DNA of 64,000 nucleotides from Endomicrobiia bacterium (GTDB lineage: Bacteria > Elusimicrobiota > Endomicrobiia > DTEH01): positions 18,157 to 82,156 of the forward strand of contig JANXDG010000050.1 of the NCBI GenBank assembly GCA_025059805.1, given 5' to 3'. How positions within the stretch are numbered: position 1 is the first letter of the stretch; each line of letters begins with the position of its first letter. Both the position numbers and the translations under genes were made by a program. Shown here piece after piece: positions 2,337-64,000 of this stretch. The notes under the pieces were generated by a model. The model did no database searches, was not told the DNA's origin, and was given only the letters and a program-made list of their open reading frames with translations.

Positions 2337-3422
2337 TTATGTTTCTGGTAAAGAAGTTAGAATTTCAACCGCTATCTTTACAACATCAGGGTCAAACCAT
2401 AATCCACTATATTTTTTCAAAAGTTCAACGACATTTTGCTGAGATGTTCCGTTAATTTTTAATTCTTCAATATAGTCAACCACTGATATTATCCGAGCAG
2501 GTAACGGAATCTGAGCACCATTTAAACCCTCCGGATACCCTGTACCATCATAGTGTTCATGGTGATGTTTAATAACAGGAGCTATATTTTTAAGTAAACT
2601 TATTTTACTTACAATCTCTGCACCAATAATAACATGCATTTTTTCTATTCTTGCACGTTCTACTATATCAATTGCATTTTCCATTTCAAAACGTAGTTTT
2701 GACGATAAATATCCAATATCGTGTAATAAAGTACCGAAATAAACTTCCTTGTATTGTTCACTTTTAGGTTCTATGTTTAACTCTTTTGCAATCCTTGTTG
2801 CTAACTGTGTCATTTTCCAGTAACGACCGATATATTTAGGCCGTACGGTTTCTATCGCTGAAACAATAAGTTCTGTAACATTAGCAAAAAAGTTTCGTTG
2901 GTTTTCTGAAAATTTCGCATTAATTATTGTTACCGAAGCAAGCCCTGCTAAACTCTCTAATAATTTTTTATCTTCTTCAGTATAACCTTGTAAATCACGT
3001 TTGTTTAATACTTCAACTACACCTATAACTTCACTGTTACCCTCAGATGTTGTCATTAACATCGGTACTGCAAGTATTGACCTTGTCTTAAACCCACTTT
3101 GTTTATCCACAGAACCTGTAAACCTCGCATCTAGCGAAACATCATTTACAATCTCAGATTTTTTCGTCAAAGCAACATTACCAGCTATACCTTCGCCAAG
3201 TTTTACTTTTATTTTTTTTACTATAGCACCGTGTTCACCACCTGCAGTTTTGAAATATAAATGTTGTTTATCATCATCAACCAACATTATAGAACTTGCT
3301 TCAGAATTTGTTAACCGTTCAGCTGCTTCACCGATACGTTTAAGTAAAACATCTAAGTCTAAAGTTGAAGATAAACTTTTTACAATCTCAAAAATTTCTT
3401 CAAGTTTCTCTATTTCTGTCAT
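2337..3422 (-). CDS. GAF domain plus HD-GYP phosphodiesterase (c-di-GMP hydrolysis)
   Basis: HDIGY and HHHEHYDGTGYPEGL motifs define an HD-GYP domain. The N-terminal ~170 aa resemble a GAF sensor. Confidence 0.75.
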   Translation of the reverse strand: MTEIEKLEEIFEIVKSLSSTLDLDVLLKRIGEAAERLTNSEASSIMLVDDDKQHLYFKTAGGEHGAIVKKIKVKLGEGIAGNVALTKKSEIVNDVSLDARFTGSVDKQSGFKTRSILAVPMLMTTSEGNSEVIGVVEVLNKRDLQGYTEEDKKLLESLAGLASVTIINAKFSENQRNFFANVTELIVSAIETVRPKYIGRYWKMTQLATRIAKELNIEPKSEQYKEVYFGTLLHDIGYLSSKLRFEMENAIDIVERARIEKMHVIIGAEIVSKISLLKNIAPVIKHHHEHYDGTGYPEGLNGAQIPLPARIISVVDYIEELKINGTSQQNVVELLKKYSGLWFDPDVVKIAVEILTSLPET

Positions 3423-3449: not shown

Positions 3450-5252
3450 TTACCGTTGACATACAGATAGTACTTCAGAATAAGTTGTTATGCCTTTTGT
3501 AACTTTTATTAACCCGTCAACTAACAATGTCCTCATACCTGTCTTTAACGCAACTTCTCTTATCCTATTTGCTGAAAGTTCTTTCAAACAAAGTTCACGT
3601 AGTTCATCGTTCATAACAAGTAATTCATGCAATGCTGTCCTACCTTTCATTCCTGTATTACCACATTTCCTACAACCAACAGGTTTCATAAATGTTGCAT
3701 TTGAATAGTCTATGTTATACTCTTTAAGTACAGATATTAATTCTTCCGATGGTGAATTATCAGGTTGTTTACAATCATTACATAATGTCCTTACTAACCT
3801 CTGTGCTAAAACACCTTCTAAAGTGTTTGCAATAAGATATGTAGGTACACCCATCTCATACAACCGTGCAACTGCAGAAGGTGCATCGTTAGTATGTAAA
3901 GTTGACAAAACTAGATGTCCTGTCAATGCTGCCTCCATTGCAACCTGTGCAGTTTCCTGATCACGTATCTCGCCTACCATAATTATGTCAGGATCTTGAC
4001 GAAGGAACGCTCTCAACGCCATCGCAAAATCAAATTTTCTATCACCCATTTTTAAATCTGGATTTATCGGCACTTGTACTACGCCGTCAAGTTCGTACTC
4101 CACAGGATTTTCAGCAGTTATTACTTTTTCTTGTGGATCTTTAACTTTTTGCAATGCTGCGGTTAAAGTGAACGATTTACCAGAACCCGTCGGTCCACAA
4201 ACAAGAATTAAACCATATGGACGATTTAATAAATAAACAAATTTTTCCAACGTGTCAGGTAAAAACCCTAATGCTTCCAATGGTAACATCGCTCCAGACC
4301 TATCTAACATACGCATAACTACACTCTCACCATATATTGTCGGAACAACGCTTACTCTAAACTCAAGTGGAACACCTTTTGCTTTCACCTGTAGCCTACC
4401 ATCCTGTGGTATTCTCCGTTCAACAATGTTCATATTACACATAATTTTTATCTTTGATATCAACGCGTTTTTATACATTATAGGAATTTTAAACGAAGCT
4501 TTCCTGAGTAAACCATCAACTCTGTATCTTACAAGAATTTTTTTCTCAAAAGGTTCTATATGAATATCAGACGCTTTCAATCTTACCGCTTCAAGGATCA
4601 AAGCGTTAACAAGTTTCTCAACTTCTGGCGCATCAGGACTTACCTGCATAATATCTGTAATTTCTTCCTTAATCTGCTGTTCCACTGAAACTTCGCTTGA
4701 AACATCTAAACTTGCAAGTAACTCCTGAGTTAGCTCTTTAGCATCTTCAGTAAGTTCTTCATGTGAAACAGCAACTTTAACTGTATCTTTTTCTTCAAAA
4801 CTAACACTTTCTTCATAAGTAGTAGGTGTACCGTATAACTGTTCAATCCTGTCCTTTATATCATCAGGAAGTGCTAAATATGGTACTACTTTAAGTCCTG
4901 TTCTCAACTCTATGTCTTCTATGACAAACAAATCTCTTGGATCTACCATTGCTATAAACAAAAAATCTTCCTCTTTACTGAACGGTACAAGTTTATGCCT
5001 CTTACAAGTTTCTACGGGAACAAATTTTGATACATCAGGATCTATATCTAAATCTTGGAGGTCCACCACTTTTACTTTCCATTCAGACGATATTGTTTTA
5101 AGCAACTTGTGTTTCTCAACAATTTTTTTGTTAACCACATACTGTTGTAATGCTATACCACTGACAGATGCTTCGCTAGAAATCCTATCAATATCAGATT
5201 TTGACAAACCAAACTGTTCAGTTAATATTTCCGCAATAGTTTTCCTTTTCAT
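3450..5252 (-). CDS. pilB: Type IV pilus assembly / type II secretion ATPase (PilB/GspE family) with long N-terminal T2SSE_N (MshEN-like) region
   Basis: Walker A GPTGSGKS, tetracysteine CNDC...CRKCG, 600 aa. Confidence 0.8.
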   Translation of the reverse strand: MKRKTIAEILTEQFGLSKSDIDRISSEASVSGIALQQYVVNKKIVEKHKLLKTISSEWKVKVVDLQDLDIDPDVSKFVPVETCKRHKLVPFSKEEDFLFIAMVDPRDLFVIEDIELRTGLKVVPYLALPDDIKDRIEQLYGTPTTYEESVSFEEKDTVKVAVSHEELTEDAKELTQELLASLDVSSEVSVEQQIKEEITDIMQVSPDAPEVEKLVNALILEAVRLKASDIHIEPFEKKILVRYRVDGLLRKASFKIPIMYKNALISKIKIMCNMNIVERRIPQDGRLQVKAKGVPLEFRVSVVPTIYGESVVMRMLDRSGAMLPLEALGFLPDTLEKFVYLLNRPYGLILVCGPTGSGKSFTLTAALQKVKDPQEKVITAENPVEYELDGVVQVPINPDLKMGDRKFDFAMALRAFLRQDPDIIMVGEIRDQETAQVAMEAALTGHLVLSTLHTNDAPSAVARLYEMGVPTYLIANTLEGVLAQRLVRTLCNDCKQPDNSPSEELISVLKEYNIDYSNATFMKPVGCRKCGNTGMKGRTALHELLVMNDELRELCLKELSANRIREVALKTGMRTLLVDGLIKVTKGITTYSEVLSVCQR

Positions 5253-10108: not shown

Positions 10109-11275
10109 CTATTTCAATATTTTTAACAACTCGTGATAAACTCTAACAGGAGTTATTGTTTCCATACAATCAGGTTTTTTATCACAATTACGTCTATAAC
10201 ATACAACACAACTTTTATTAGAAACAATTTTTGTACCTAACCCATAAAGTTCTATCTCGTTTGCAGAAGTAGGACCAAAAAGTACAACCACTTTTTTCTT
10301 TAATGCCAATGCTATATGTAATGCTAAACTGTCAGAAGTGATAACTACGTCACAAAGGTTCACCAGAGAAAAAAATTGTCTTAATGTGTTATTACATCCT
10401 GTATCTATAATTTTAGTAGAGAGTAGCGGGTAGCGAGCAGTGAATAATGTAATAATTTTTTTATTTCTTTGTTCTTCTTTTACTCCGCCGAATAATAAAA
10501 TTTTAATTTCTTTACCCACATAATTCTTACTGCTCGCTATAAGTTTCATAAGTTCTACTGTTTGGGGAACAGGATATTCTTTTTTCTCCCATTTGTCACC
10601 GCCGCCAAGATTTATACCAACAAAAACAAATTTTTTAGATTTTTCATTATTAGAAACATACGGTTCTATAAAATTTTTTGCGAACAATTTTTCTTCATCG
10701 GTTAGTTTAATTATAATAGGATATTCTGAAGAAGATAAATCTTTAAACTCTAAAATTTCCATCAAATATTGTTGATAAGTTTTTTGATTTTTTTTCTTCA
10801 ACAAGTCATTGTGACTTAGGTCAAACCATTGTTTTGCAGCATCGTTTGAACATAAAATTCTATTATCGCCATCTAAATAAAAACCATAAATTTGTTTAGC
10901 AAAAATATTCCTTGTTAACCGCAACGCGTCAAGATCAAGGTCAAGGTTTATCATAATGTCAAATTTTTCACTAAATAAAAGAAAAGATTGACTTAATGGT
11001 ATAACTTCATTAATATAAGAGTTATTATACAAAACTTCAACTGCGTTGTCCTCCGTTATCCAGGTAAGTTTTGAGTTTTTCCATCGTGTATGAATAGGTT
11101 TAAGAATACAAGTTGTACGGACAACATCGCCTATCGCTGCAAGTTTTATCACCAAGATTTTTTTATTTACAGGTTTATAAAATTTACAATTTGCACATAC
11201 TACACTTGCATTATCCTTATGAAACTTACAAGGTCTGTCAGAAAGAAAATAAATACAATCTTGTTTATAATTCAT
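10109..11275 (-). CDS. Glycosyltransferase family 9 (heptosyltransferase-like) with N- and C-terminal Cys clusters
   Basis: KLAAIGDVVRTTCILKPI resembles the RLSxLGD motif of ADP-heptose:LPS heptosyltransferases. The extra Cys-rich segments (CKFHKDNASVVCANCKFY and CVVCYRRNCDKKPDC) are atypical. Confidence 0.6.
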   Translation of the reverse strand: MNYKQDCIYFLSDRPCKFHKDNASVVCANCKFYKPVNKKILVIKLAAIGDVVRTTCILKPIHTRWKNSKLTWITEDNAVEVLYNNSYINEVIPLSQSFLLFSEKFDIMINLDLDLDALRLTRNIFAKQIYGFYLDGDNRILCSNDAAKQWFDLSHNDLLKKKNQKTYQQYLMEILEFKDLSSSEYPIIIKLTDEEKLFAKNFIEPYVSNNEKSKKFVFVGINLGGGDKWEKKEYPVPQTVELMKLIASSKNYVGKEIKILLFGGVKEEQRNKKIITLFTARYPLLSTKIIDTGCNNTLRQFFSLVNLCDVVITSDSLALHIALALKKKVVVLFGPTSANEIELYGLGTKIVSNKSCVVCYRRNCDKKPDCMETITPVRVYHELLKILK

Positions 11276-11279
11276 TTTA

Positions 11280-12101
11280 TTAAACTCTTACTTGAATACC
11301 AGCAGAGTTCATTGCAGTTTTCACTTTTTTTATAGAATACTTTTTATAATGAAACACTGAAGCTGCAAGCACTGCGGAAACTTTTGCCTTCTTTACAACC
11401 TCTATAAAATGTTCTATTTTGCCAGCACCGCCTGAAGCTATGACAGGTATATTTACTGCATCAACTACTGCTTTTGTAAGTTCAACATCGTATCCTTGAT
11501 TAGTACCATCAGCATCTATACTTGTAAGCAAAATCTCGCCAGCACCAAGTTTCTCAACTTTCCTTGCCCAAAATACTGCATCTAACCCTGTTGGTGTTGA
11601 CCCTGCATTTATATATACTTCCCACTTCTTGCTTTCAACTTTTGATCGTGAACTGTGAACTGTGAACCGTGAACTATGAACTGTGAACTGTGAACCGTGA
11701 ACTAACTTAGCATCTATCGCCACAACTATACATTGTGAACCAAACATTTTCGCAGCTTGTTTCACAAAATCAGGATTTTTAACAGCAGCAGTGTTTATTG
11801 CAACTTTATCCGCACCTGAGTTCAACAAATCACGAATATCATCTAAACTTTTAACACCACCACCTACTGTTAACGGTACAAAAACATTTTGTGCTGTACG
11901 TTTTACCACATCTAACAATATTTGTCTTTTCTCAATTGTCGCTGTAATGTCTAAAAAAACAATTTCGTCTGCTCCTTCGTCAGAATACCATTTCGCAAGT
12001 TCCACAGGGTCACCCGCATAACGTAAATTCTTAAAATGAATACCTTTTACAACTTTACCTTCTTTTACATCAAGACATGGAATTATTCGTATTGTGTACA
12101 T
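11280..12101 (-). CDS. hisF: Imidazole glycerol phosphate synthase cyclase subunit HisF (carries an in-frame repeat-encoded insertion)
   Basis: [38 protein letters not shown] motifs. An extra ~20 aa segment [17 protein letters not shown] is encoded by a heptamer tandem repeat. Confidence 0.85.
11648..11703. repeat. Tandem heptamer repeat (GTGAACT on plus strand, AGTTCAC on the coding strand), 8 units, inside hisF
   Basis: Direct reading: gtgaact gtgaact gtgaacc gtgaact atgaact gtgaact gtgaacc gtgaact. Confidence 0.9.
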
Positions 12102-19233: not shown

Positions 19234-20964
19234 CTATCTACGCTTCTTTAAAAATTTACAAAGTTGAGAATACGACATTGTATTAACCACATCTTTTTTC
19301 TCAAGCCAGCCACGACGTGCTACATATACACCTAAAATAAGATATTCCATTTGTGAGATATGATGTGCATCAGTTCCAATTGAAAGCATTACACCATGTT
19401 CCTTCGCATATTTTGAATTTACATCATCTAAGTCAAGCCGTTCCGGGAAAGCGTTTATTTCAAGCATAACATCATTTTTGCCAGCGTATTCTATTATTTT
19501 GGAGATATTAACTCTGTAAGGAGAACGTTTATTTAATAATCTTCCGGTAGGATGTGAAATAGAGTGAACATATTTATTATCAATAGCGCGCATAATACGT
19601 TCAGTAATTTGTTCTTCTGACTGTTTAAACCCTGTATGTATTGCTGCTATTACAAAATCTAACTCTTTCAAAACATCGTCGGGATAATCAAGTTTACCAT
19701 CAGAGGTTATATCAACTTCTTGTCCACAAAGGATTTTTACTTTACTTGTCTTATTTATATTTCTTATTTCATCAATTTTCTTATACAAATCCTTAATTGA
19801 AACACCACCTGCTACTTTCAAACTTTGTGAATGGTCACATATTATAATCCATTCATAACCTAATTTTTCTGCATACTCTACAATTTCTTTTATTGTATTT
19901 GTTCCATCTGAGTATTTTGAATGAATATGAGTATCACCTTTGATATCTTTCATCTCTAACAATTTAGGTAGTTCACCTTTTAATGCATATTCAATTTCTC
20001 CCCTATCTTCTCTTAACTCCGGCTCTATATATTGTAAGTCTAAAATTTTATAAATTTCTTCTTCAGTTCTGCCACAGATAGGTTTATCTTTTCTACCAAT
20101 CTTAAACACTCCATATTCGCTAAGAGTTAATCCTTTCTTATTTGCAATTTCTCTTAAATGAATGTTATGTTGCTTTGAACCTGTAAAATACTGCAATGCA
20201 GCACCGTATACTTCTTTTGGTACAACTCTAAGGTCTACCTGAATGTTGGAATCTGTCAATATACTTCCTTTAGTGTCACCGCTTGCCATCACTTTTTTTA
20301 CCATAGGCAATTTTGTAAATTTTTCAATTATATATTTTTCCTTCCCTGGTACAACACAACATAGAATATCTATATCACCTATGGTTTCCTTTCTTCTACG
20401 GAGAGAACCACAAGGATCTATGTTTACTACCTCTTTGTTTTTCTTTATCTCTTTTAATATCTCTTCAACAGTTTTCAACGCGTCAAACAACAGTAATCTT
20501 TGTTCCGAAACTGACAAAAGTTGTATCCCTTCAACAATATTTTGTTCAACCTTTTCCCCAAAACCGGGTAAATTCCTCAACATACCTTTCTGTGCATATT
20601 CTTTAAGAGTTTGTATATCTTTCACCCCGAGTTTTTCATAAATAAGACGAACACGTTTTGGTCCTAACCCAGGTATTCGTAACATATCAAATATTCCTTC
20701 GGGGAACTTTGATTTAAGTTCTTCTAAACGTTTAATTTTGCCTGTTTCAAAATACTCTACAATTTTTTCTGCTATACTTTTCCCAACACCAGGAATTGAT
20801 GAAAGCTTATCAAAATTTTTTGCTAAATCCTCAATAGCTTCAGGTAACGATTCTATCACCTGTGCTGCTTTTTCATAAGCACGAACTTTGAATGGATTTT
20901 CATCAGTTAAACTCAAAAGTTGTGCTATAAGATAAAACTGTTCTGCAACTTCTTTATTTCTCAT
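19234..20964 (-). CDS. polX: DNA polymerase X family protein with C-terminal PHP domain
   Basis: N-terminal HhH/Pol-beta-like region (GIGKSIAEKI, GLGPKR), nucleotidyltransferase GSLRRRKETIGDIDIL, C-terminal PHP (HIHSKYSDG). Confidence 0.8.
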   Translation of the reverse strand: MRNKEVAEQFYLIAQLLSLTDENPFKVRAYEKAAQVIESLPEAIEDLAKNFDKLSSIPGVGKSIAEKIVEYFETGKIKRLEELKSKFPEGIFDMLRIPGLGPKRVRLIYEKLGVKDIQTLKEYAQKGMLRNLPGFGEKVEQNIVEGIQLLSVSEQRLLLFDALKTVEEILKEIKKNKEVVNIDPCGSLRRRKETIGDIDILCCVVPGKEKYIIEKFTKLPMVKKVMASGDTKGSILTDSNIQVDLRVVPKEVYGAALQYFTGSKQHNIHLREIANKKGLTLSEYGVFKIGRKDKPICGRTEEEIYKILDLQYIEPELREDRGEIEYALKGELPKLLEMKDIKGDTHIHSKYSDGTNTIKEIVEYAEKLGYEWIIICDHSQSLKVAGGVSIKDLYKKIDEIRNINKTSKVKILCGQEVDITSDGKLDYPDDVLKELDFVIAAIHTGFKQSEEQITERIMRAIDNKYVHSISHPTGRLLNKRSPYRVNISKIIEYAGKNDVMLEINAFPERLDLDDVNSKYAKEHGVMLSIGTDAHHISQMEYLILGVYVARRGWLEKKDVVNTMSYSQLCKFLKKRR

Positions 20965-20966
20965 AA

Positions 20967-21038
20967 AGTTAGTTGTTTAGGCGTTTAGTTGTTTAGGCGT
21001 TTAGGCATTTAGGCGTTTAGTTGCTTGAATGTTTAGGA
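20967..21038. repeat. Tandem octamer repeat (GTTTAGGC / GTTTAGTT), about 9 units, in the spacer upstream of polX
   Basis: Direct reading: gtttaggc gtttagtt gtttaggc gtttaggc atttaggc gtttagtt gcttgaat gtttagga. Confidence 0.9.
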
Positions 21039-21779
21039 TATTATTTGAGTAAACCTTATTGCATCATCGTACATTGTAGAGTTGTTAAACATTACATAAT
21101 TAAGATTTTTATCACATAACTTATAAACTTTTTTAAGTTCTTCATCAGTAAATTGATAGTTATAATCAAGCCGATTACCTATGTGTAAACCATGTAAGCG
21201 ATAGTATCTATATTCTCCGTAATAAGATCTACCATATAATGGATCAACACAATGAATCAGATTTAATTCACTTGCAATTTTTCTTATAACCTTTTCATTC
21301 CATTCTTCGCCACGAAGTTCTATTATAAAATCAAAATTATACTTTTGTCTATCCTTTTGTACTTTTTTAAAGAAATTATAAAGATTTTTTAAATTCATAT
21401 CTCCAGGTGTAAAACTTGACGGACATTGAAATAAAATTTTTCTACATCCAAGTGCTACTGCAAAATCTTTTGTTCGTTGCCAAGCAGTTAAAACTTCATC
21501 TGTCAGCATAAAAAATCCATAGTTTTTTGGTTCACCAAGTTTTTCTTTCATCCTGCGGTAAGTAAACGATGTTGCTTTATGTGTGATAACTTGCCATGCT
21601 TTAATAATAAACTCAAAATTAGGATTTCGTTCCTCTGCTTCCTTTCTCCATCGTAATGCTGATTTTACTGGCGGCAGTTGATAAAATGTTGAATTAATCT
21701 CAATACAAGGAAATTCTTCATAATATTTTTTTTGTGCGATAGGGAAACCACAACATCCTATCATTATTGTTTTCTTCAT
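21033..21779 (-). CDS. DUF72 (UPF0759) family protein
   Basis: MIGCCGF...FYQLP N-terminal signature of DUF72/YecE-like proteins. Confidence 0.65.
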   Translation of the reverse strand: MKKTIMIGCCGFPIAQKKYYEEFPCIEINSTFYQLPPVKSALRWRKEAEERNPNFEFIIKAWQVITHKATSFTYRRMKEKLGEPKNYGFFMLTDEVLTAWQRTKDFAVALGCRKILFQCPSSFTPGDMNLKNLYNFFKKVQKDRQKYNFDFIIELRGEEWNEKVIRKIASELNLIHCVDPLYGRSYYGEYRYYRLHGLHIGNRLDYNYQFTDEELKKVYKLCDKNLNYVMFNNSTMYDDAIRFTQIIS

Positions 21780-57183: not shown

Positions 57184-58446
57184 TTATAAAATTCCAGGTT
57201 CAACAAAACCATTTTCTTTAGCCTCCGGTGTTAGTTTTAATGAACCAAATTGTATTATTTTCACATCTCTTACATCATATCTTTTAGGATAAGTTAAGTA
57301 AATTTTACTATTGACAAAATCTATATCTTTTATAATTGCTAAGCATATAAATTCGTGATTGCCATCAAGTAATGCAACAATTACATTTTTAAAATCTTCT
57401 ACAACAGGATTTCTAATTTTTTTCACGTTATAAACTTTTTGTAATATTTGTTTCTCTCCATCAGTAATTTGTTTACTACTAACAACATATAAACCCTCAA
57501 AACCAGGTAGTCGTTCTAACCATTTTATACTTTTTATTTTAGTTTTGTTTTCTATCTTTTCTCCGGTAAGAAAATATGAACGGTCTGTAAAAATTTCTTG
57601 AAAAGAAAATTCAACATCTTCTAATTCTGAAAAATATTTCTTATAAACAAATTCGCGCAACTTCTTCCTTTCATCAGTTGAAGTTGGCGATGCTTTCTTT
57701 GAAACTGTTAATCTCATAATACGTTCTTGTGGAATTGATCTCACAAGATGTTCAATCTCTTTATTTCTTTCTAATAATATTACAAGATAATTTGTCCCCA
57801 GTGCACTTAGAATCTCAATTTCGCTATTTCTTAACATTCTACCACCATCACCTAAAACCCAACCTGGTGTGTCAATAATCACAACATTGGAATTCTTAAG
57901 ACCAAAATTCAAAAGTTTTGTAAACCCACAAAGATAATGTAAAAAATGTTCTGCTGGAGAATGTGAACCTACAAAGTATAATTTAGTAGGTTCTATTTCT
58001 GTCATAAAAAGTATTGGTTTGTCAAACACTGCTATACCAAGTGTTGATGGCGGTCCTATATCCGATTGTCCAGTGTCACAATCCAAAACTGATGGTTTTA
58101 CATTAAAAGAAAGCAGTTTGTTTGTAAGATAAGTTGAAAAAAACGTTTTCCCTGTATCCACTTCGCCAAAAATAATCACACTGTTGATACGTTTTGAAAT
58201 TATATACTCAACAACTCTGTCCCAATCGTCAGGTATAGTCCGCGAAGGTAATTCTGTGATTTTGCCAGTATCGTCAGTCTCAATCACAGCTTCCTGCGAG
58301 TTTACTTCTAAAGGAATACGTTTACCTTCGGGAACAAAAACTTCTTCGTTTGGTATAAACTTTCTACCAATACTTTCAACCTCGCCACTTATAAACTTTA
58401 TATTCAAAGGTCCAGAAATAAAATATACACCTTTTTTGATCAACAT
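57184..58446 (-). CDS. Clp1/Grc3-family polynucleotide 5'-kinase-like P-loop protein
   Basis: P-loop IFGEVDTGKTFFSTYL followed by LDCDTGQSD (the DxDxGQ motif typical of Clp1). 420 aa. Confidence 0.55.
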   Translation of the reverse strand: MLIKKGVYFISGPLNIKFISGEVESIGRKFIPNEEVFVPEGKRIPLEVNSQEAVIETDDTGKITELPSRTIPDDWDRVVEYIISKRINSVIIFGEVDTGKTFFSTYLTNKLLSFNVKPSVLDCDTGQSDIGPPSTLGIAVFDKPILFMTEIEPTKLYFVGSHSPAEHFLHYLCGFTKLLNFGLKNSNVVIIDTPGWVLGDGGRMLRNSEIEILSALGTNYLVILLERNKEIEHLVRSIPQERIMRLTVSKKASPTSTDERKKLREFVYKKYFSELEDVEFSFQEIFTDRSYFLTGEKIENKTKIKSIKWLERLPGFEGLYVVSSKQITDGEKQILQKVYNVKKIRNPVVEDFKNVIVALLDGNHEFICLAIIKDIDFVNSKIYLTYPKRYDVRDVKIIQFGSLKLTPEAKENGFVEPGIL

Positions 58447-59958: not shown

Positions 59959-62900
59959 CTAACTTTTAGAATTATGCCAGAATTGTAAAGAACCTACATT
60001 AAAATTAACTTTCTTAGTGAGAATATTATAATTCTTCTTTAATTCTTTTATTGATTCTATTACACACTGTGCTGCTTCCAATGTTGTTATTATGGGTATA
60101 TTGTTAACCAGAGCGTTTCTACGAATCATAAATCCATCTGAGAAAGATCTTCCTTTACCAGTCGGTGTGTTTATCACTAAGTTAACATCACGATTTAAAA
60201 TTACATCAACTACGTTTGGTCTTCCTTCGGAAAGTTTGTTAACCTTTTCACAATTGATACCATATTTAGATAAATATTCCGCTGTACCAGAAGTCGCTAT
60301 TATCTTAAAACCTAATTCTGCTAATTGTTTTGCTATTTTAACTCCTTTCTGTTTATCTTTGTTATTCAAACTTAGCAAAACTTTACCTTCTATCGGTATT
60401 TCACTGTTAGCAGCAAATTGTGATTTTGCATATGCTAACGCAAATGTTCTATCAATACCCATAACTTCACCAGTTGACCTCATTTCTGGTGATAAAACTA
60501 CATCTACATCTGCAAATTTTTGAAATGGCAAAACTACTTCTTTTACTGTATAATACTTTAAGTTAAAAATTTTGTCTTGTGAAAAATTATAATGTTTTAA
60601 TAAATCCGATAATTTATAACCTAACATAACTTTAGTAGCAACTTTTGCTATGGGTAAACCAATTGTTTTTGAAACATAAGGTACTGTACGTGACGCACGC
60701 GGGTTAACTTCAAGGACATAAATTATACCGTCTTTTATTGCAAGCTGTAAATTCATTAATCCCTTTACTTTTAATTCCCTTGCCAATAAATTTGTATACT
60801 TAAAAATCGTTTTATATTGTTGTTCTGAGATTGAAATCGGAGGTATTACACATGCGCTATCACCTGAATGTACACCAGCAGCTTCAATATGTTCCATAAT
60901 TCCAGCAATAAAAACTTCTTCACCGTCACATATAACATCAACATCAAGTTCAGTCGCATTTTCTAAAAAACGGTCAATTATTACCGCAGCAGAAGGTGCA
61001 GCAAAACGTTCCGCTTCTTCAAACAACTTTGATAAGTATGAGCTTAACGTAGTTTCATCATAAATAACTTCCATTGCACGGCCACCAAGAACATAAGATG
61101 GCCGCACAATAACAGGAAAACCAATTTTACAAGCAATTCTAATTGCTTCTTTGTAATCCCGTGCATATCCATGTTCAGGATATGGTAGTTTAAGTCTCTT
61201 TAAAACTTTTGCAAAAAGTTCTCTATCTTCTGCAAGAGATATATTCTCAGGTTGCGTCCCTAATACTTTAACATTAAAAGATTTTAACTTTAAGGCAATG
61301 TTAAGTGGTGTCTGACCACCAAACTGTAGTATTACTCCAAGAAGTTTAGTATTTGTAACTTGTGATATAATCTGTTCTGTTTTATATAAATTAAGAACAT
61401 CCTCAAATGTTATAGGCTCAAAGTAAAGTTTATCTGAAGTATCATAATCTGTGGAGACAGTTTCAGGATTACAGTTTACCATTATTGCTTCTATGTTTTC
61501 CTCTTTAAGTGCCATTACAGCATGGACACAACAATAATCAAACTCTATCCCTTGGCCAATACGGTTAGGTCCCGCACCTAATACAATAACTTTGTCTTTA
61601 TTTTTCTTTGTAAATGTTAAACTTTCGTTAAAATACGATAATTCTTCTACTGTATATTTCTGTGAACTATGAACTGTAAACTGTGAACGACTATCAACAC
61701 CGTCATAAGTAGAATAAAAATATGGCGTATATGCTTCAAATTCTGCAGCACAGGTGTCTACCACTTTATAGTTTGGCAGTAAATTTTGTTTTAAACGAAA
61801 GTTCGTAATTTCTTCTGTTTTTTTATCCAACATATACGCAATCTGATGGTCAGAAAAGCCATAGCGTTTAGCTTCCAAAAGTAATTTTTTAAATTCATCA
61901 CTTCCAAATTTTTTCTTAGATTTAGCGAATAACCTAATTCCCTGTTCTAAATCAACGATTTCTTTTATCTGATATATAAACCACTTATCAATACGCGAAA
62001 TTTTAGAAATTTCTTCAACTGACATACCAAGCTGTAACGCATATTTTATGTTAAAAACACGATCACAGTTCGGATGACGTAATTTGTATTCAACAAGTTT
62101 TAAATATTGTTGTCTTTCTTTGTTATCTTCTGGTAAACTCATCAATCTTTCAACTATTTTCACTTGACCTAACCCGTCCGCACCTAAACCATATCTACCT
62201 ATTTCTAACCCACGTAATGCTTTCTGTAGTGCTTCTTTAAAAGTTCGTCCAATAGCCATTACTTCACCTATGGACTTCATCTGTGAACCTAATATTTGAT
62301 AACTATCATTTACAACTTCGCCATTTTTTGTCACTGGTTGAAATTTTTCAAATGCAAATTTTGGTATTTTAACAACTACGTAATCTATTGTTGGTTCAAA
62401 ACATGCTGGTGTCTTCTTAGTTATGTCATTAGGTATCTCATCTAAAGTATAGCCAACAGCTAACAACGCTGCTATTTTCGCAATTGGGAAACCTGTTGCT
62501 TTTGACGCTAACGCTGAAGAACGTGACACTCTGGGATTCATTTCTATTATGACAATCCTGCCAGTTTGAGGGTTAATAGCAAATTGTATGTTAGAACCGC
62601 CAGTTTCCACACCTACAGCTCGTATACACTTAAATGCCATATCACGCATACGTTGATATTCTCTATCAGTGAGCGTCTGTGCAGGCGCAACAGTAATAGA
62701 ATCTCCAGTATGTACACCCATAGGGTCAAAATTTTCTATACTACAAACAATTACACAATTGTTTTTACAATCACGCATCACCTCTAGTTCGTATTCTTTC
62801 CAGCCATCTAAATATTCTTCAATAAGTATCTCAGATATCATTGATGACTGCAGGGCATTTTTTGCAGCTTCTACAAATTCATCTTCGTTGAAAACAATTT

Positions 62901-63438
62901 TAGAACCTGTCCCACCTAAAGTAAACGATGGACGAATAATTAACGGGAAACCAATCTTTTTTGCAATATCTACAGCTTCGGTGAGATTATAAGCAAAACC
63001 ACTTTTTGGTAAATCAAGGCCAACAGCTAACATTGTTTCTTTAAACAATTTTCTGTCCTCACCACGACGTATCGCTTCAACCTTAGCACCAATAAGTTCC
63101 ACATTGTATTTTGAAAGTATACCCAATTCGTCAAGTTTAACCGCAAGATTTAAACCTGTTTGTCCACCAAGTGTCGGAAGTAACGCATCAGGACGTTCTT
63201 TCTCTATAATTTTTTCTAACACTTCGGGAATTAGGGGTTCTATGTAAGTACTATCTGCAAATTCTGGGTCTGTCATTATAGTTGCAGGATTAGAATTAAC
63301 CAGTACAACTTTATAACCCTCTTTTTTTAACACCTTAACAGCTTGAGTACCAGAGTAATCAAATTCACAGGCCTGTCCTATAACTATAGGTCCTGAACCT
63401 ATAACAAGTATTTTTTTAATATCTTTTCTTTTTGGCAT
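59959..63438 (-). CDS. carB: Carbamoyl-phosphate synthase large subunit (carries an in-frame repeat-encoded insertion)
   Basis: Two ATP-grasp halves, [21 protein letters not shown]-like C-terminus. 1159 aa. An extra ~25 aa including SQFTVHSS lies between the oligomerisation region and the second synthetase half. Confidence 0.9.
61663..61690. repeat. Tandem heptamer repeat (GTGAACT family), 4 units, inside carB
   Basis: Direct reading: gtgaact atgaact gtaaact gtgaacg. Same unit as the hisF repeat. Confidence 0.85.
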
Positions 63439-63448
63439 AAATTTACTC

Positions 63449-64000
63449 TCAACAAATTGAATACTTTTTTTCTAACAGATTAATAAATTTTTCAAATAAA
63501 TATTTTGAATCATTAGGTCCTGGAGCAGATTCCGGATGATATTGAACTGCAAAAATTGGTAATTTAATATGTTCTATCCCTTCACATGAATAGTCATTTA
63601 AATTTATGTGTGTTACTTTTAATTCTCTATTGCCTTTGACATAATATATATTATCAGCTTGTTCCATCTCTACTGCAAAATTGTGATTTTGTGAAGTAAT
63701 TTCTATCTGTCCATTGACAAAATTTTTAACTGGATGGTTAATACCGTGATGACCAAATTTAAGTTTGTAAGTTTTACCACCAAGTGCTAACGCTATCATT
63801 TGATGTCCTAAACATATACCAAAAATAGGTAAATATGTGTTAGTAGATATAGAATAAGAAATAATCTTTTCTACAGTTTTAAAAACATAAGGTACACCTT
63901 CAGGATCACCAGGACCGTTTGATAAAAATATTCCATCTGGAGAAAAACTTAGTATTTTATCTATACTAGTATCTGCTGGCACAACAATTAAATCACATCC
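63449..64000 (-). CDS. carA: Carbamoyl-phosphate synthase small subunit, C-terminal glutamine amidotransferase domain (gene continues beyond window end)
   Basis: GICLGHQ catalytic Cys motif and HPE histidine motif. Directly upstream of carB. Confidence 0.8.

Follow-up and report, generated by a model that had tools for sequence, protein, structure and literature searches.

An AGTTCAC heptanucleotide repeat in frame within hisF and carB of an Endomicrobiia genome, a likely member of a clade-specific simple-sequence repeat family

Introduction

Among the long simple-sequence repeats (SSRs) of most prokaryotic genomes, those with heptanucleotide units are reported to be the most abundant (Mrazek, Guo and Shah 2007, as cited in PMC4679880 and PMC4692102), and slippage of a polymerase with a footprint of about 7 nt was, according to the same citing papers, proposed in that study. 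Dispersed families built on a single heptamer have been described as STRR (short tandemly repeated repetitive) sequences in heterocystous cyanobacteria, as GGGNATC in Xanthomonas and Nostoc (PMC4692102) and as TAACTGA in Beggiatoaceae (PMC4679880). Here, we analyzed a stretch of 64,000 nt from an Endomicrobiia bacterium (assembly GCA_025059805.1, contig JANXDG010000050.1, positions 18,157 to 82,156; hereafter the window), in which one heptamer, AGTTCAC on the coding strand, is tandemly repeated in frame within two unrelated genes, hisF and carB. A literature search for the exact repeat strings returned nothing relevant.

The two arrays share with the prokaryotic heptanucleotide SSRs and STRR the tandem 7-nt units, the recurrence in related genomes and a copy number that varies between strains. 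The described families are, however, mostly intergenic with tens to hundreds of arrays per genome, whereas here the repeat lies in frame in essential enzymes, with two arrays in 78 kb. The host also differs, being an AT-rich Endomicrobia metagenome-assembled genome (MAG), unlike the large GC-rich or cyanobacterial genomes of the SSR/STRR families. A further parallel is provided by TAACTGA, present in marine Beggiatoaceae, cyanobacteria and Bacteroidetes, for which MacGregor (PMC4679880) puts forward a stop-codon and orientation argument, by which the tolerated positions of arrays depend on their orientation and coding potential. As with AGTTCAC, one strand is translatable (LSVISYQ) and the other always stops, and the repeat is patchy across phyla in that account. 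TAACTGA is described there as lying mainly just upstream of start codons, with a proposed regulatory role, whereas the AGTTCAC arrays are located mid-gene, in loops. GGGNATC, as characterized in PMC4692102, is likewise a dispersed heptamer SSR with variable unit numbers, about four being preferred; it forms quadruplexes, whereas AGTTCAC has no G-tracts and no folding propensity.

Two other systems deserve comparison. Heptanucleotide cases are mentioned among the phase-variable loci covered in PMC2651432. The contingency loci of Haemophilus, Neisseria and Campylobacter resemble hisF in carrying a non-triplet SSR in an open reading frame (ORF), where a difference in unit number shifts the frame. 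The classical examples are surface or restriction-modification genes of host-adapted pathogens with the repeat near the 5' end, whereas hisF encodes a core enzyme and is affected mid-gene. Rickettsia palindromic elements show a similar tolerance of repeat-derived peptides in surface loops of essential proteins encoded by unrelated genes. These elements are fixed-length, palindromic and mobile, whereas the arrays studied here consist of direct tandem heptamers, vary in unit number and lack hairpin potential.

Results

Heptamer arrays in hisF and carB

The window is AT-rich, with about 32% GC. Its sequence matches contig JAVQTB010000005.1 (GCA_033581535.1) at 99.96% identity, and contigs of a second MAG, GCA_026416555.1, at 99.7%. 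The gene hisF (11280-12101, minus strand) encodes the 273-aa cyclase subunit of imidazole glycerol phosphate synthase, as identified from its ORF, from matches to HisF structures in the PDB and from 100% identity to a database protein annotated as 'MAG Endomicrobia bacterium HisF' (P0001). Its array comprises eight units (11648-11703, minus strand) that encode 16-18 aa and read, on the sense strand, AGTTCAC, GGTTCAC, AGTTCAC, AGTTCAT, AGTTCAC, GGTTCAC, AGTTCAC and AGTTCAC. Tandem Repeats Finder (TRF) reports 8.0 copies with a score of 91, and the lag-7 autocorrelation is 0.72. The array also resolves as an exact tandem duplication of a 28-nt, four-unit block (11649-11704, minus strand; TRF period 28, 2.0 copies, 100%), and is accompanied by three decayed units (11627-11647, minus strand; sense GATCAAA, AGTTGAA and AGCAAGA), recognized by their sequence and phase-7 layout.

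About 50 kb away lies carB (59959-63438, minus strand), coding for the 1159-aa large subunit of carbamoyl-phosphate synthase. The assignment is based on the ORF, on alignment to E. coli CarB structures and on the Pfam CPSase domains, which were found on the carB gene of equal length in L461. Four degenerate units plus a partial AG at 61660-61661 form its array (61662-61689, minus strand). On the plus strand they read GTGAACT, ATGAACT, GTAAACT and GTGAACG, corresponding in sense to CGTTCAC, AGTTTAC, AGTTCAT and AGTTCAC, and they encode about 10 aa in frame. TRF places the repeat at 61660-61688 with period 7, 4.1 copies, 81% matches, a score of 44 and the unit CTGTGAA, a rotation of GTGAACT. With the hisF array masked, no 30-nt segment of the window matches (AGTTCAC)n better than this site (27/30 positions); 300 first-order shuffles gave a mean of 19.9 and a maximum of 22. 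The similarity of the carB array to the hisF unit exceeds chance, and head-to-tail 7-nt units above chance are what characterizes a heptanucleotide SSR family. These results confirm the original prediction that four degenerate GTGAACT-type units lie in frame in carB and that the same repeat family encodes the same peptide in two unrelated genes. Both window copies lie inside coding sequences, in contrast to the predominantly intergenic position typical of the STRR, GGGNATC and TAACTGA families, although some copies in relatives are intergenic. Pfam searches on the hisF and carB genes reported no family beyond those of the host enzymes.

Reading frame and the shared peptide

Since 7 and 3 are coprime, a stretch of three units (21 nt) translates into the same cyclic order of seven residues whatever the frame, with only the starting residue shifted. 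Read in sense, (AGTTCAC)n gives the cyclic peptide SSQFTVH in each of the three frames; its complement, (GTGAACT)n, gives VNCEL-stop-T in each, the stop being TGA. Peptide identity is thus forced by the 7-nt unit, and the SQFTVHS peptide shared by HisF and CarB is therefore no evidence of peptide selection. The TGA in every antisense frame further means that arrays of at least three units can persist in genes in one orientation only; among the matches listed for 120 loci in other genomes, 0/130 arrays were open in antisense. As 7 is not a multiple of 3, the frame shifts with every net gain or loss except one of three units. Beyond the unit itself, a 16-nt string, ACAGTTCATAGTTCAC, which includes the variant unit AGTTCAT, is identical in the hisF and carB arrays and may hint at copying between the two loci.

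The hisF insert and its history

The spacing from the AIDAK to the WEVY motif amounts to 6 residues in HisF relatives of 251-252 aa and to 27 in the window. This loop insert of 21 aa corresponds to 63 nt or nine units and is made up of the array plus the three decayed units. It maps between residues 136 and 137 of the solved structure 4evz, four residues past the catalytic Asp of the IDAK motif (Asp130 in T. maritima HisF). In the AlphaFold2 model (mean pLDDT, the predicted local distance difference test score, of 87), residues 137-156 fall below 50 and loop out between strands 125-134 and 159-164, at the tip of a beta-hairpin; the insert is thus predicted to be disordered.

Four relatives with HisF proteins 76-82% identical carry heptamer-built inserts at the same codon position and in the same AGTNNNN phase. 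For example, one insert reads AGTTCAG AGTGGAA AGTTTAT AGTTCAT AGTAAAA, another AGTTCAG AGTCAAG AGTTCAG AGTGAAG, and a third GGTTCAT AGTCAAA AGTTAAA AGTTGAT AGTAAAA AACTCCG AACTAAC. The lag-7 autocorrelation of the relatives' inserts is 0.47-0.62 (shuffle p <=0.006). At 62-65% HisF identity the inserts open with LVHS, LVHG or LVNS, and other relatives of 251-252 aa are without insert. The recurrence of heptamer inserts at the same site and in the same phase indicates that the hisF array is old and orthologous across these relatives. In most lineages it decays through substitution, and in the species represented by the window it has been re-homogenized. In relative L422, the unit recurs in antisense, with its stop codons mutated, and makes up the second half of the insert; the hairpin potential of this sense-plus-antisense insert is not significant (z = -1.6).

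The hairpin tip has also received other sequences. In two HisF genes of near-identical sequence (L469, 740-1672, and L470, 169-1035; different runs), the in-frame inserts at this position are wholly different. In P0025/L469 the insert is a strong, REP/MITE-like palindrome of 165 nt (-61.7 kcal/mol), and in L470 heptamer arrays of two units, GGAGAAG and ATTTRCC, make it up. The tip is a hot spot for insertions in general. Like the interdomain linker of CarB, it is shown to be a permissive site. The earlier proposal of a coding-tolerant simple-sequence repeat is supported.

The CarB linker

Between the motifs DTCAxEF and GPNRIGQG, 97/108 partial CarB sequences have a spacing of 30 aa, compared to 55 aa in the window, so that the insertion of about 25 aa noticed originally is of the size claimed (+25 aa). 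In an alignment to 1bxr, the extra residues map between positions 548 and 557 of E. coli CarB, which is the junction of the oligomerization domain and the carbamoyl-phosphate synthetic half (second ATP-grasp half). Based on the motif spacing, this mapping and the relatives described below, the clade-specific linker extension covers residues ~580-616 (61591-61701, minus strand).

A protein search with CarB retrieved only fragments of <690 aa, with close relatives absent from the results; the relatives' loci were found by a metagenome search using the less conserved oligomerization domain as query. Among the ten closest loci (L427-L436; seven of the sequences are distinct), the linkers measure 50-53 aa and keep conserved ends (DGVL.R at the start, YFNE[ST]L.[YF].K at the end), and no period-7 signal was found in the variable linker core of the seven sequences. 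CarB relatives farther away show the baseline linker of 30 aa. The lag-7 autocorrelation of the whole linker in the window is 0.39, and the relatives have none. The possibility that the rest of the insert consists of decayed units was therefore rejected, and the heptamer array is confined to the variable core of the linker, to which it adds ~2-5 aa. Most of the ~25-aa insertion is hence a clade-level linker extension (roughly 20-25 aa) that was not made by the repeat, and the comparison with relatives indicates a young, species-specific carB array within this older extension. On this point the original prediction has to be amended: the repeat occupies only the variable core of ~10 aa, and the insertion itself is a linker extension of the clade. 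It had also proposed a comparison of orthologues, which turned out differently for the two genes: hisF relatives have same-phase period-7 inserts, whereas CarB relatives have a linker of similar length without period-7 signal.

The carB array is the same in 4/4 assemblies compared, which fits its interrupted, less slippage-prone sequence; a few residues differ between CarB of the window and of the deposited assemblies. In an independent assembly of the same run (L463, Logan SRR15826899_17365), the contig breaks within carB, 33 nt upstream of the array.

Other heptamers occupy this operon in a more distant, Elusimicrobia-like metagenome contig (L434). There, the CarB linker contains ACGAGGG (x3.6), the oligomerization domain of carB contains CAAATTG (x5) and carA contains CTACTCC (x4.3), all of them in frame. 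With additional 9-nt and 19-nt tandem repeats in carB, this essential operon is unusually repeat-laden (repeats at 1379-1408, 3213-3247, 3456-3480, 4214-4245 and 4399-4441 of L434). A tendency towards 7-nt arrays is general, with each lineage preferring its own unit. In the window, carA (63449-64000) has an extra loop of ~6 aa, common to L427, at the position of the CTACTCC array in L434; this loop may be another decayed array.

Unit number in a second genome

In GCA_026416555.1 (L466; JAOAEX010000003.1, 5519-6312), exactly one 28-nt block of four units is missing from hisF (alignment L466/L467). No hisF gene is called there between the Rce1-like and GT9 genes, and the GT9 gene start lies 28 nt earlier. 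The four-unit allele takes HisF out of frame after residue ~141 and leaves the C-terminal half in another frame without a start codon. The remaining hisF differences between these 99.7%-identical genomes are two synonymous substitutions only. Across the ~50 kb compared, we counted three internal indels between the window type and GCA_026416555.1, namely the 28-nt block, a duplication of 3 nt and, in a run of T, a change of 1 nt. Unit number is accordingly polymorphic between GCA_033581535.1 and GCA_026416555.1, as seen in a single alternative assembly. At the boundary between the two 28-nt blocks lies an AGTTCAT unit, whose variant base equals the one that precedes the array, as a tandem 28-nt duplication would leave it. 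This suggests that the eight-unit hisF allele was derived from the four-unit state; a deletion in the other direction yields the same two sequences. The hisF array is a mutational liability, or a switch. Its frame may toggle frequently and reversibly, or the four-unit allele may be a one-off pseudogenization or an assembly error.

Dispersal in this genome and its relatives

AGTTCAC arrays occur in this genome at two loci 50 kb apart in the 78 kb examined; no third array was found in the window or in the 14 kb of flank added on both sides. A near-match at 3592-3614 was considered as a third array and rejected as a chance match, since it lies antisense to a conserved GspE/PilB ATPase motif. When the window and the loci of relatives are combined, 11 AGTTCAN-type sites are observed compared to 1.25 expected. 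Among them are a site between genes at a distance of 3 kb from hisF (L423), one at the 3' end of the DUF72 gene (L424), one downstream of carB (L433) and one in the GT9 gene at an orthologous position in two relatives. The dispersed family proposed in the original prediction is thus supported by the relatives, while this genome has two arrays in 78 kb.

The GT9 segments of L423 (2423-2452) and L424 (11518-11547) have period 7, encode LIVRSSKYK and LIVQSPKLKV and lie at a length-variable position; the corresponding copy (LIASSKNY) in the window's heptosyltransferase-like GT9 gene (10109-11275, beside hisF) is below threshold. The window also contains an 8-nt tandem array of GTTTAGGC/GTTTAGTT (20969-21037, ~6-8 units, TRF score 71-89), which fills the spacer from a PolX-like gene (19234-20964) to a DUF72 gene (21033-21779). 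In L424, the corresponding PolX-like/DUF72 spacer has a 7-nt AGTTMAT array (4213-4241).

The unit in other genomes

A scan for (RTGAACY)3 across one genome per GTDB species returned at least 120 loci. Among the matches listed, which are mostly MAGs, we find Bacteroidota, Nitrospirota, Acidobacteriota, Cyanobacteria, Planctomycetota and archaea. Six of these loci have a well-separated second array, three (L020, L031, L038) consist of adjacent inverted array pairs, and in some genomes the unit is intergenic. In a scan of viral contigs, three composition-matched permuted heptamers gave 29, 67 and at least 120 loci, compared to 84 for the real unit. Because the permuted heptamers are about as frequent, the unit is not exceptional. 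A universal element built on (GTGAACT)n was consequently dropped as a candidate.

In-frame AGTTCAC/GGTTCAC repeats were also seen in genes for chorismate synthase (two genomes, at different positions), the editing domain of LeuRS, HypF, a pseudouridine synthase, a GH3 enzyme and ferrochelatase. Their hosts are Nitrospirota, Bacteroidota and others (e.g. L024, L064, L060, L049, L003, L019 and L066).

Neighboring genes

Apart from the repeats, the window encodes a protein of 420 aa (57184-58446) that contains a CLP1_P (Clp1/Grc3-type polynucleotide kinase) domain; its gene lies beside that of an adenosine deaminase. This family is better known from archaea and eukaryotes and is found here in a bacterial genome.

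Discussion

We consider it likely that the hisF and carB arrays are part of a clade-specific, STRR-like heptanucleotide SSR family with AGTTCAC on the coding strand, which evolves by slippage. In such a family, arrays would grow, shrink and decay via replication slippage or unequal exchange between units. Two filters determine which of them are retained in genes. By orientation, only arrays (at least three units) with AGTTCAC on the sense strand can persist. By protein tolerance, they are kept where extra, probably disordered residues are harmless; these sites are the beta-hairpin tip just after the catalytic Asp130 in HisF and the linker from the oligomerization domain to the second ATP-grasp half in CarB. 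An existing array could have supplied the unit shared by the two loci through ectopic copying or template switching; alternatively, a clade-specific sequence bias in array birth could account for it. We infer slippage as the process behind array change, with one event observed (the 28-nt difference), and a copying step or a sequence bias behind the shared unit.

Several points weigh against this explanation. The 28-nt difference comes from one short-read MAG assembly, in which the assembler could have collapsed a perfect duplication. Moreover, 28 is not divisible by 3, so that an exact duplication is no single neutral step in a functional gene, and the history therefore needs a non-functional intermediate or compensating events. 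With only two arrays in 78 kb, the notion of a dispersed family rests largely on relatives. Finally, independent slippage does not account for the same unit at two loci, including the 16-nt string ACAGTTCATAGTTCAC.

The arrays could instead be footprints of a small mobile or copy-and-paste element inserting in frame, comparable to the Rickettsia palindromic element or to REP/MITE-like elements. Such an origin fits the occurrence of one unit and one 16-nt string at loci 50 kb apart as well as the species-specific carB array. The palindrome of P0025/L469 at the same HisF hairpin tip illustrates that mobile insertions land there, and arrays in other phyla often come as adjacent inverted pairs (L020, L031, L038). 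We nevertheless regard a mobile element as unlikely. The array RNA folds at -10.6 kcal/mol compared to a shuffle mean of -18.2 kcal/mol (z = +2.55), leaving no hairpin potential, and no fixed-length consensus, terminal repeats, target duplications or shared flanks are apparent between the arrays of eight and four units. Copy number changes in unit steps, and the hisF array is orthologous, decays in place and varies continuously across relatives. Still less credible is an incidental similarity of unrelated low-complexity stretches, or an error of metagenome assembly. It is true that arbitrary tandem heptamers are common, as the control counts in viral contigs (29, 67 and at least 120 versus 84 loci) illustrate, and that most genome matches, among those listed, are MAGs. 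However, the carB match beats all 300 shuffles by 5 positions, both arrays leave the long essential ORFs uninterrupted, independent assemblies contain them in identical form, and relatives from other samples have same-phase arrays at the hisF site. Taken together, an artefact is very improbable.

Equally improbable is the selected peptide module that the original prediction had offered as an alternative. SQFTVHS would then have been taken up by the two enzymes independently, for instance as a motif for binding or regulation. The same 8-aa string does occur in two essential enzymes, and both copies are in frame in several assemblies, but a 7-nt unit forces this identity in any frame. The segment is predicted to be disordered (pLDDT <50), HisF orthologues have diverged inserts or none, CarB orthologues have unrelated sequence at the site, the unit is also intergenic in other genomes, and what is conserved is the period and phase of the DNA, not the peptide. 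On these grounds, namely the coprime arithmetic, the predicted disorder and the orthologues with other or no sequence, we set the proposal aside. A different question is whether the hisF array represents an adaptive contingency locus, in which slippage reversibly toggles histidine biosynthesis and might, for example, save its cost when neighbors supply histidine. With a 7-nt unit most slips shift the frame, and two 99.7%-identical genomes differ by four units, one being in frame and one out. The otherwise merely two synonymous hisF substitutions point to a recent or reversible out-of-frame state, and the AGTTCAT junction unit suggests that the in-frame eight-unit allele was duplicated from a four-unit state. 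Against this stands a single alternative allele in one assembly with possible assembler collapse. Furthermore, most of the known contingency loci affect genes for surface structures or restriction-modification, whereas hisF and carB belong to core biosynthesis; the carB array is interrupted and invariant, and in-frame length variants (5 or 11 units) are not seen among the best 120 HisF database matches. An adaptive role thus remains doubtful, about on a par with the mobile element. There is a slightly smaller chance that the arrays are reversible frame switches in core genes, hisF being off with four and on with eight units, with a clade-specific, sequence-biased seeding of AGTTCAN arrays at new sites such as carB. 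If this were true, frame switching would let members of a cross-feeding community lose histidine prototrophy and recover it rapidly.

Viewed as members of a heptanucleotide SSR family, the arrays are unusual for their in-frame placement in two essential enzymes and for the evolutionary series from a fresh array to an ordinary loop. This hisF series, which runs from the homogeneous array here to an ordinary variable loop in relatives, suggests a microsatellite origin for some lineage-specific loops. For annotation, an identical peptide in two proteins is no functional evidence when a 7-nt repeat encodes it. Similarly, caution is needed in metabolic inference from MAGs, as four repeat units are all that separates an intact hisF in one assembly from a frameshifted one in another. 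If toggling should prove to be frequent and reversible, contingency-locus behavior would extend from the surface genes of pathogens to the core metabolism of environmental bacteria.

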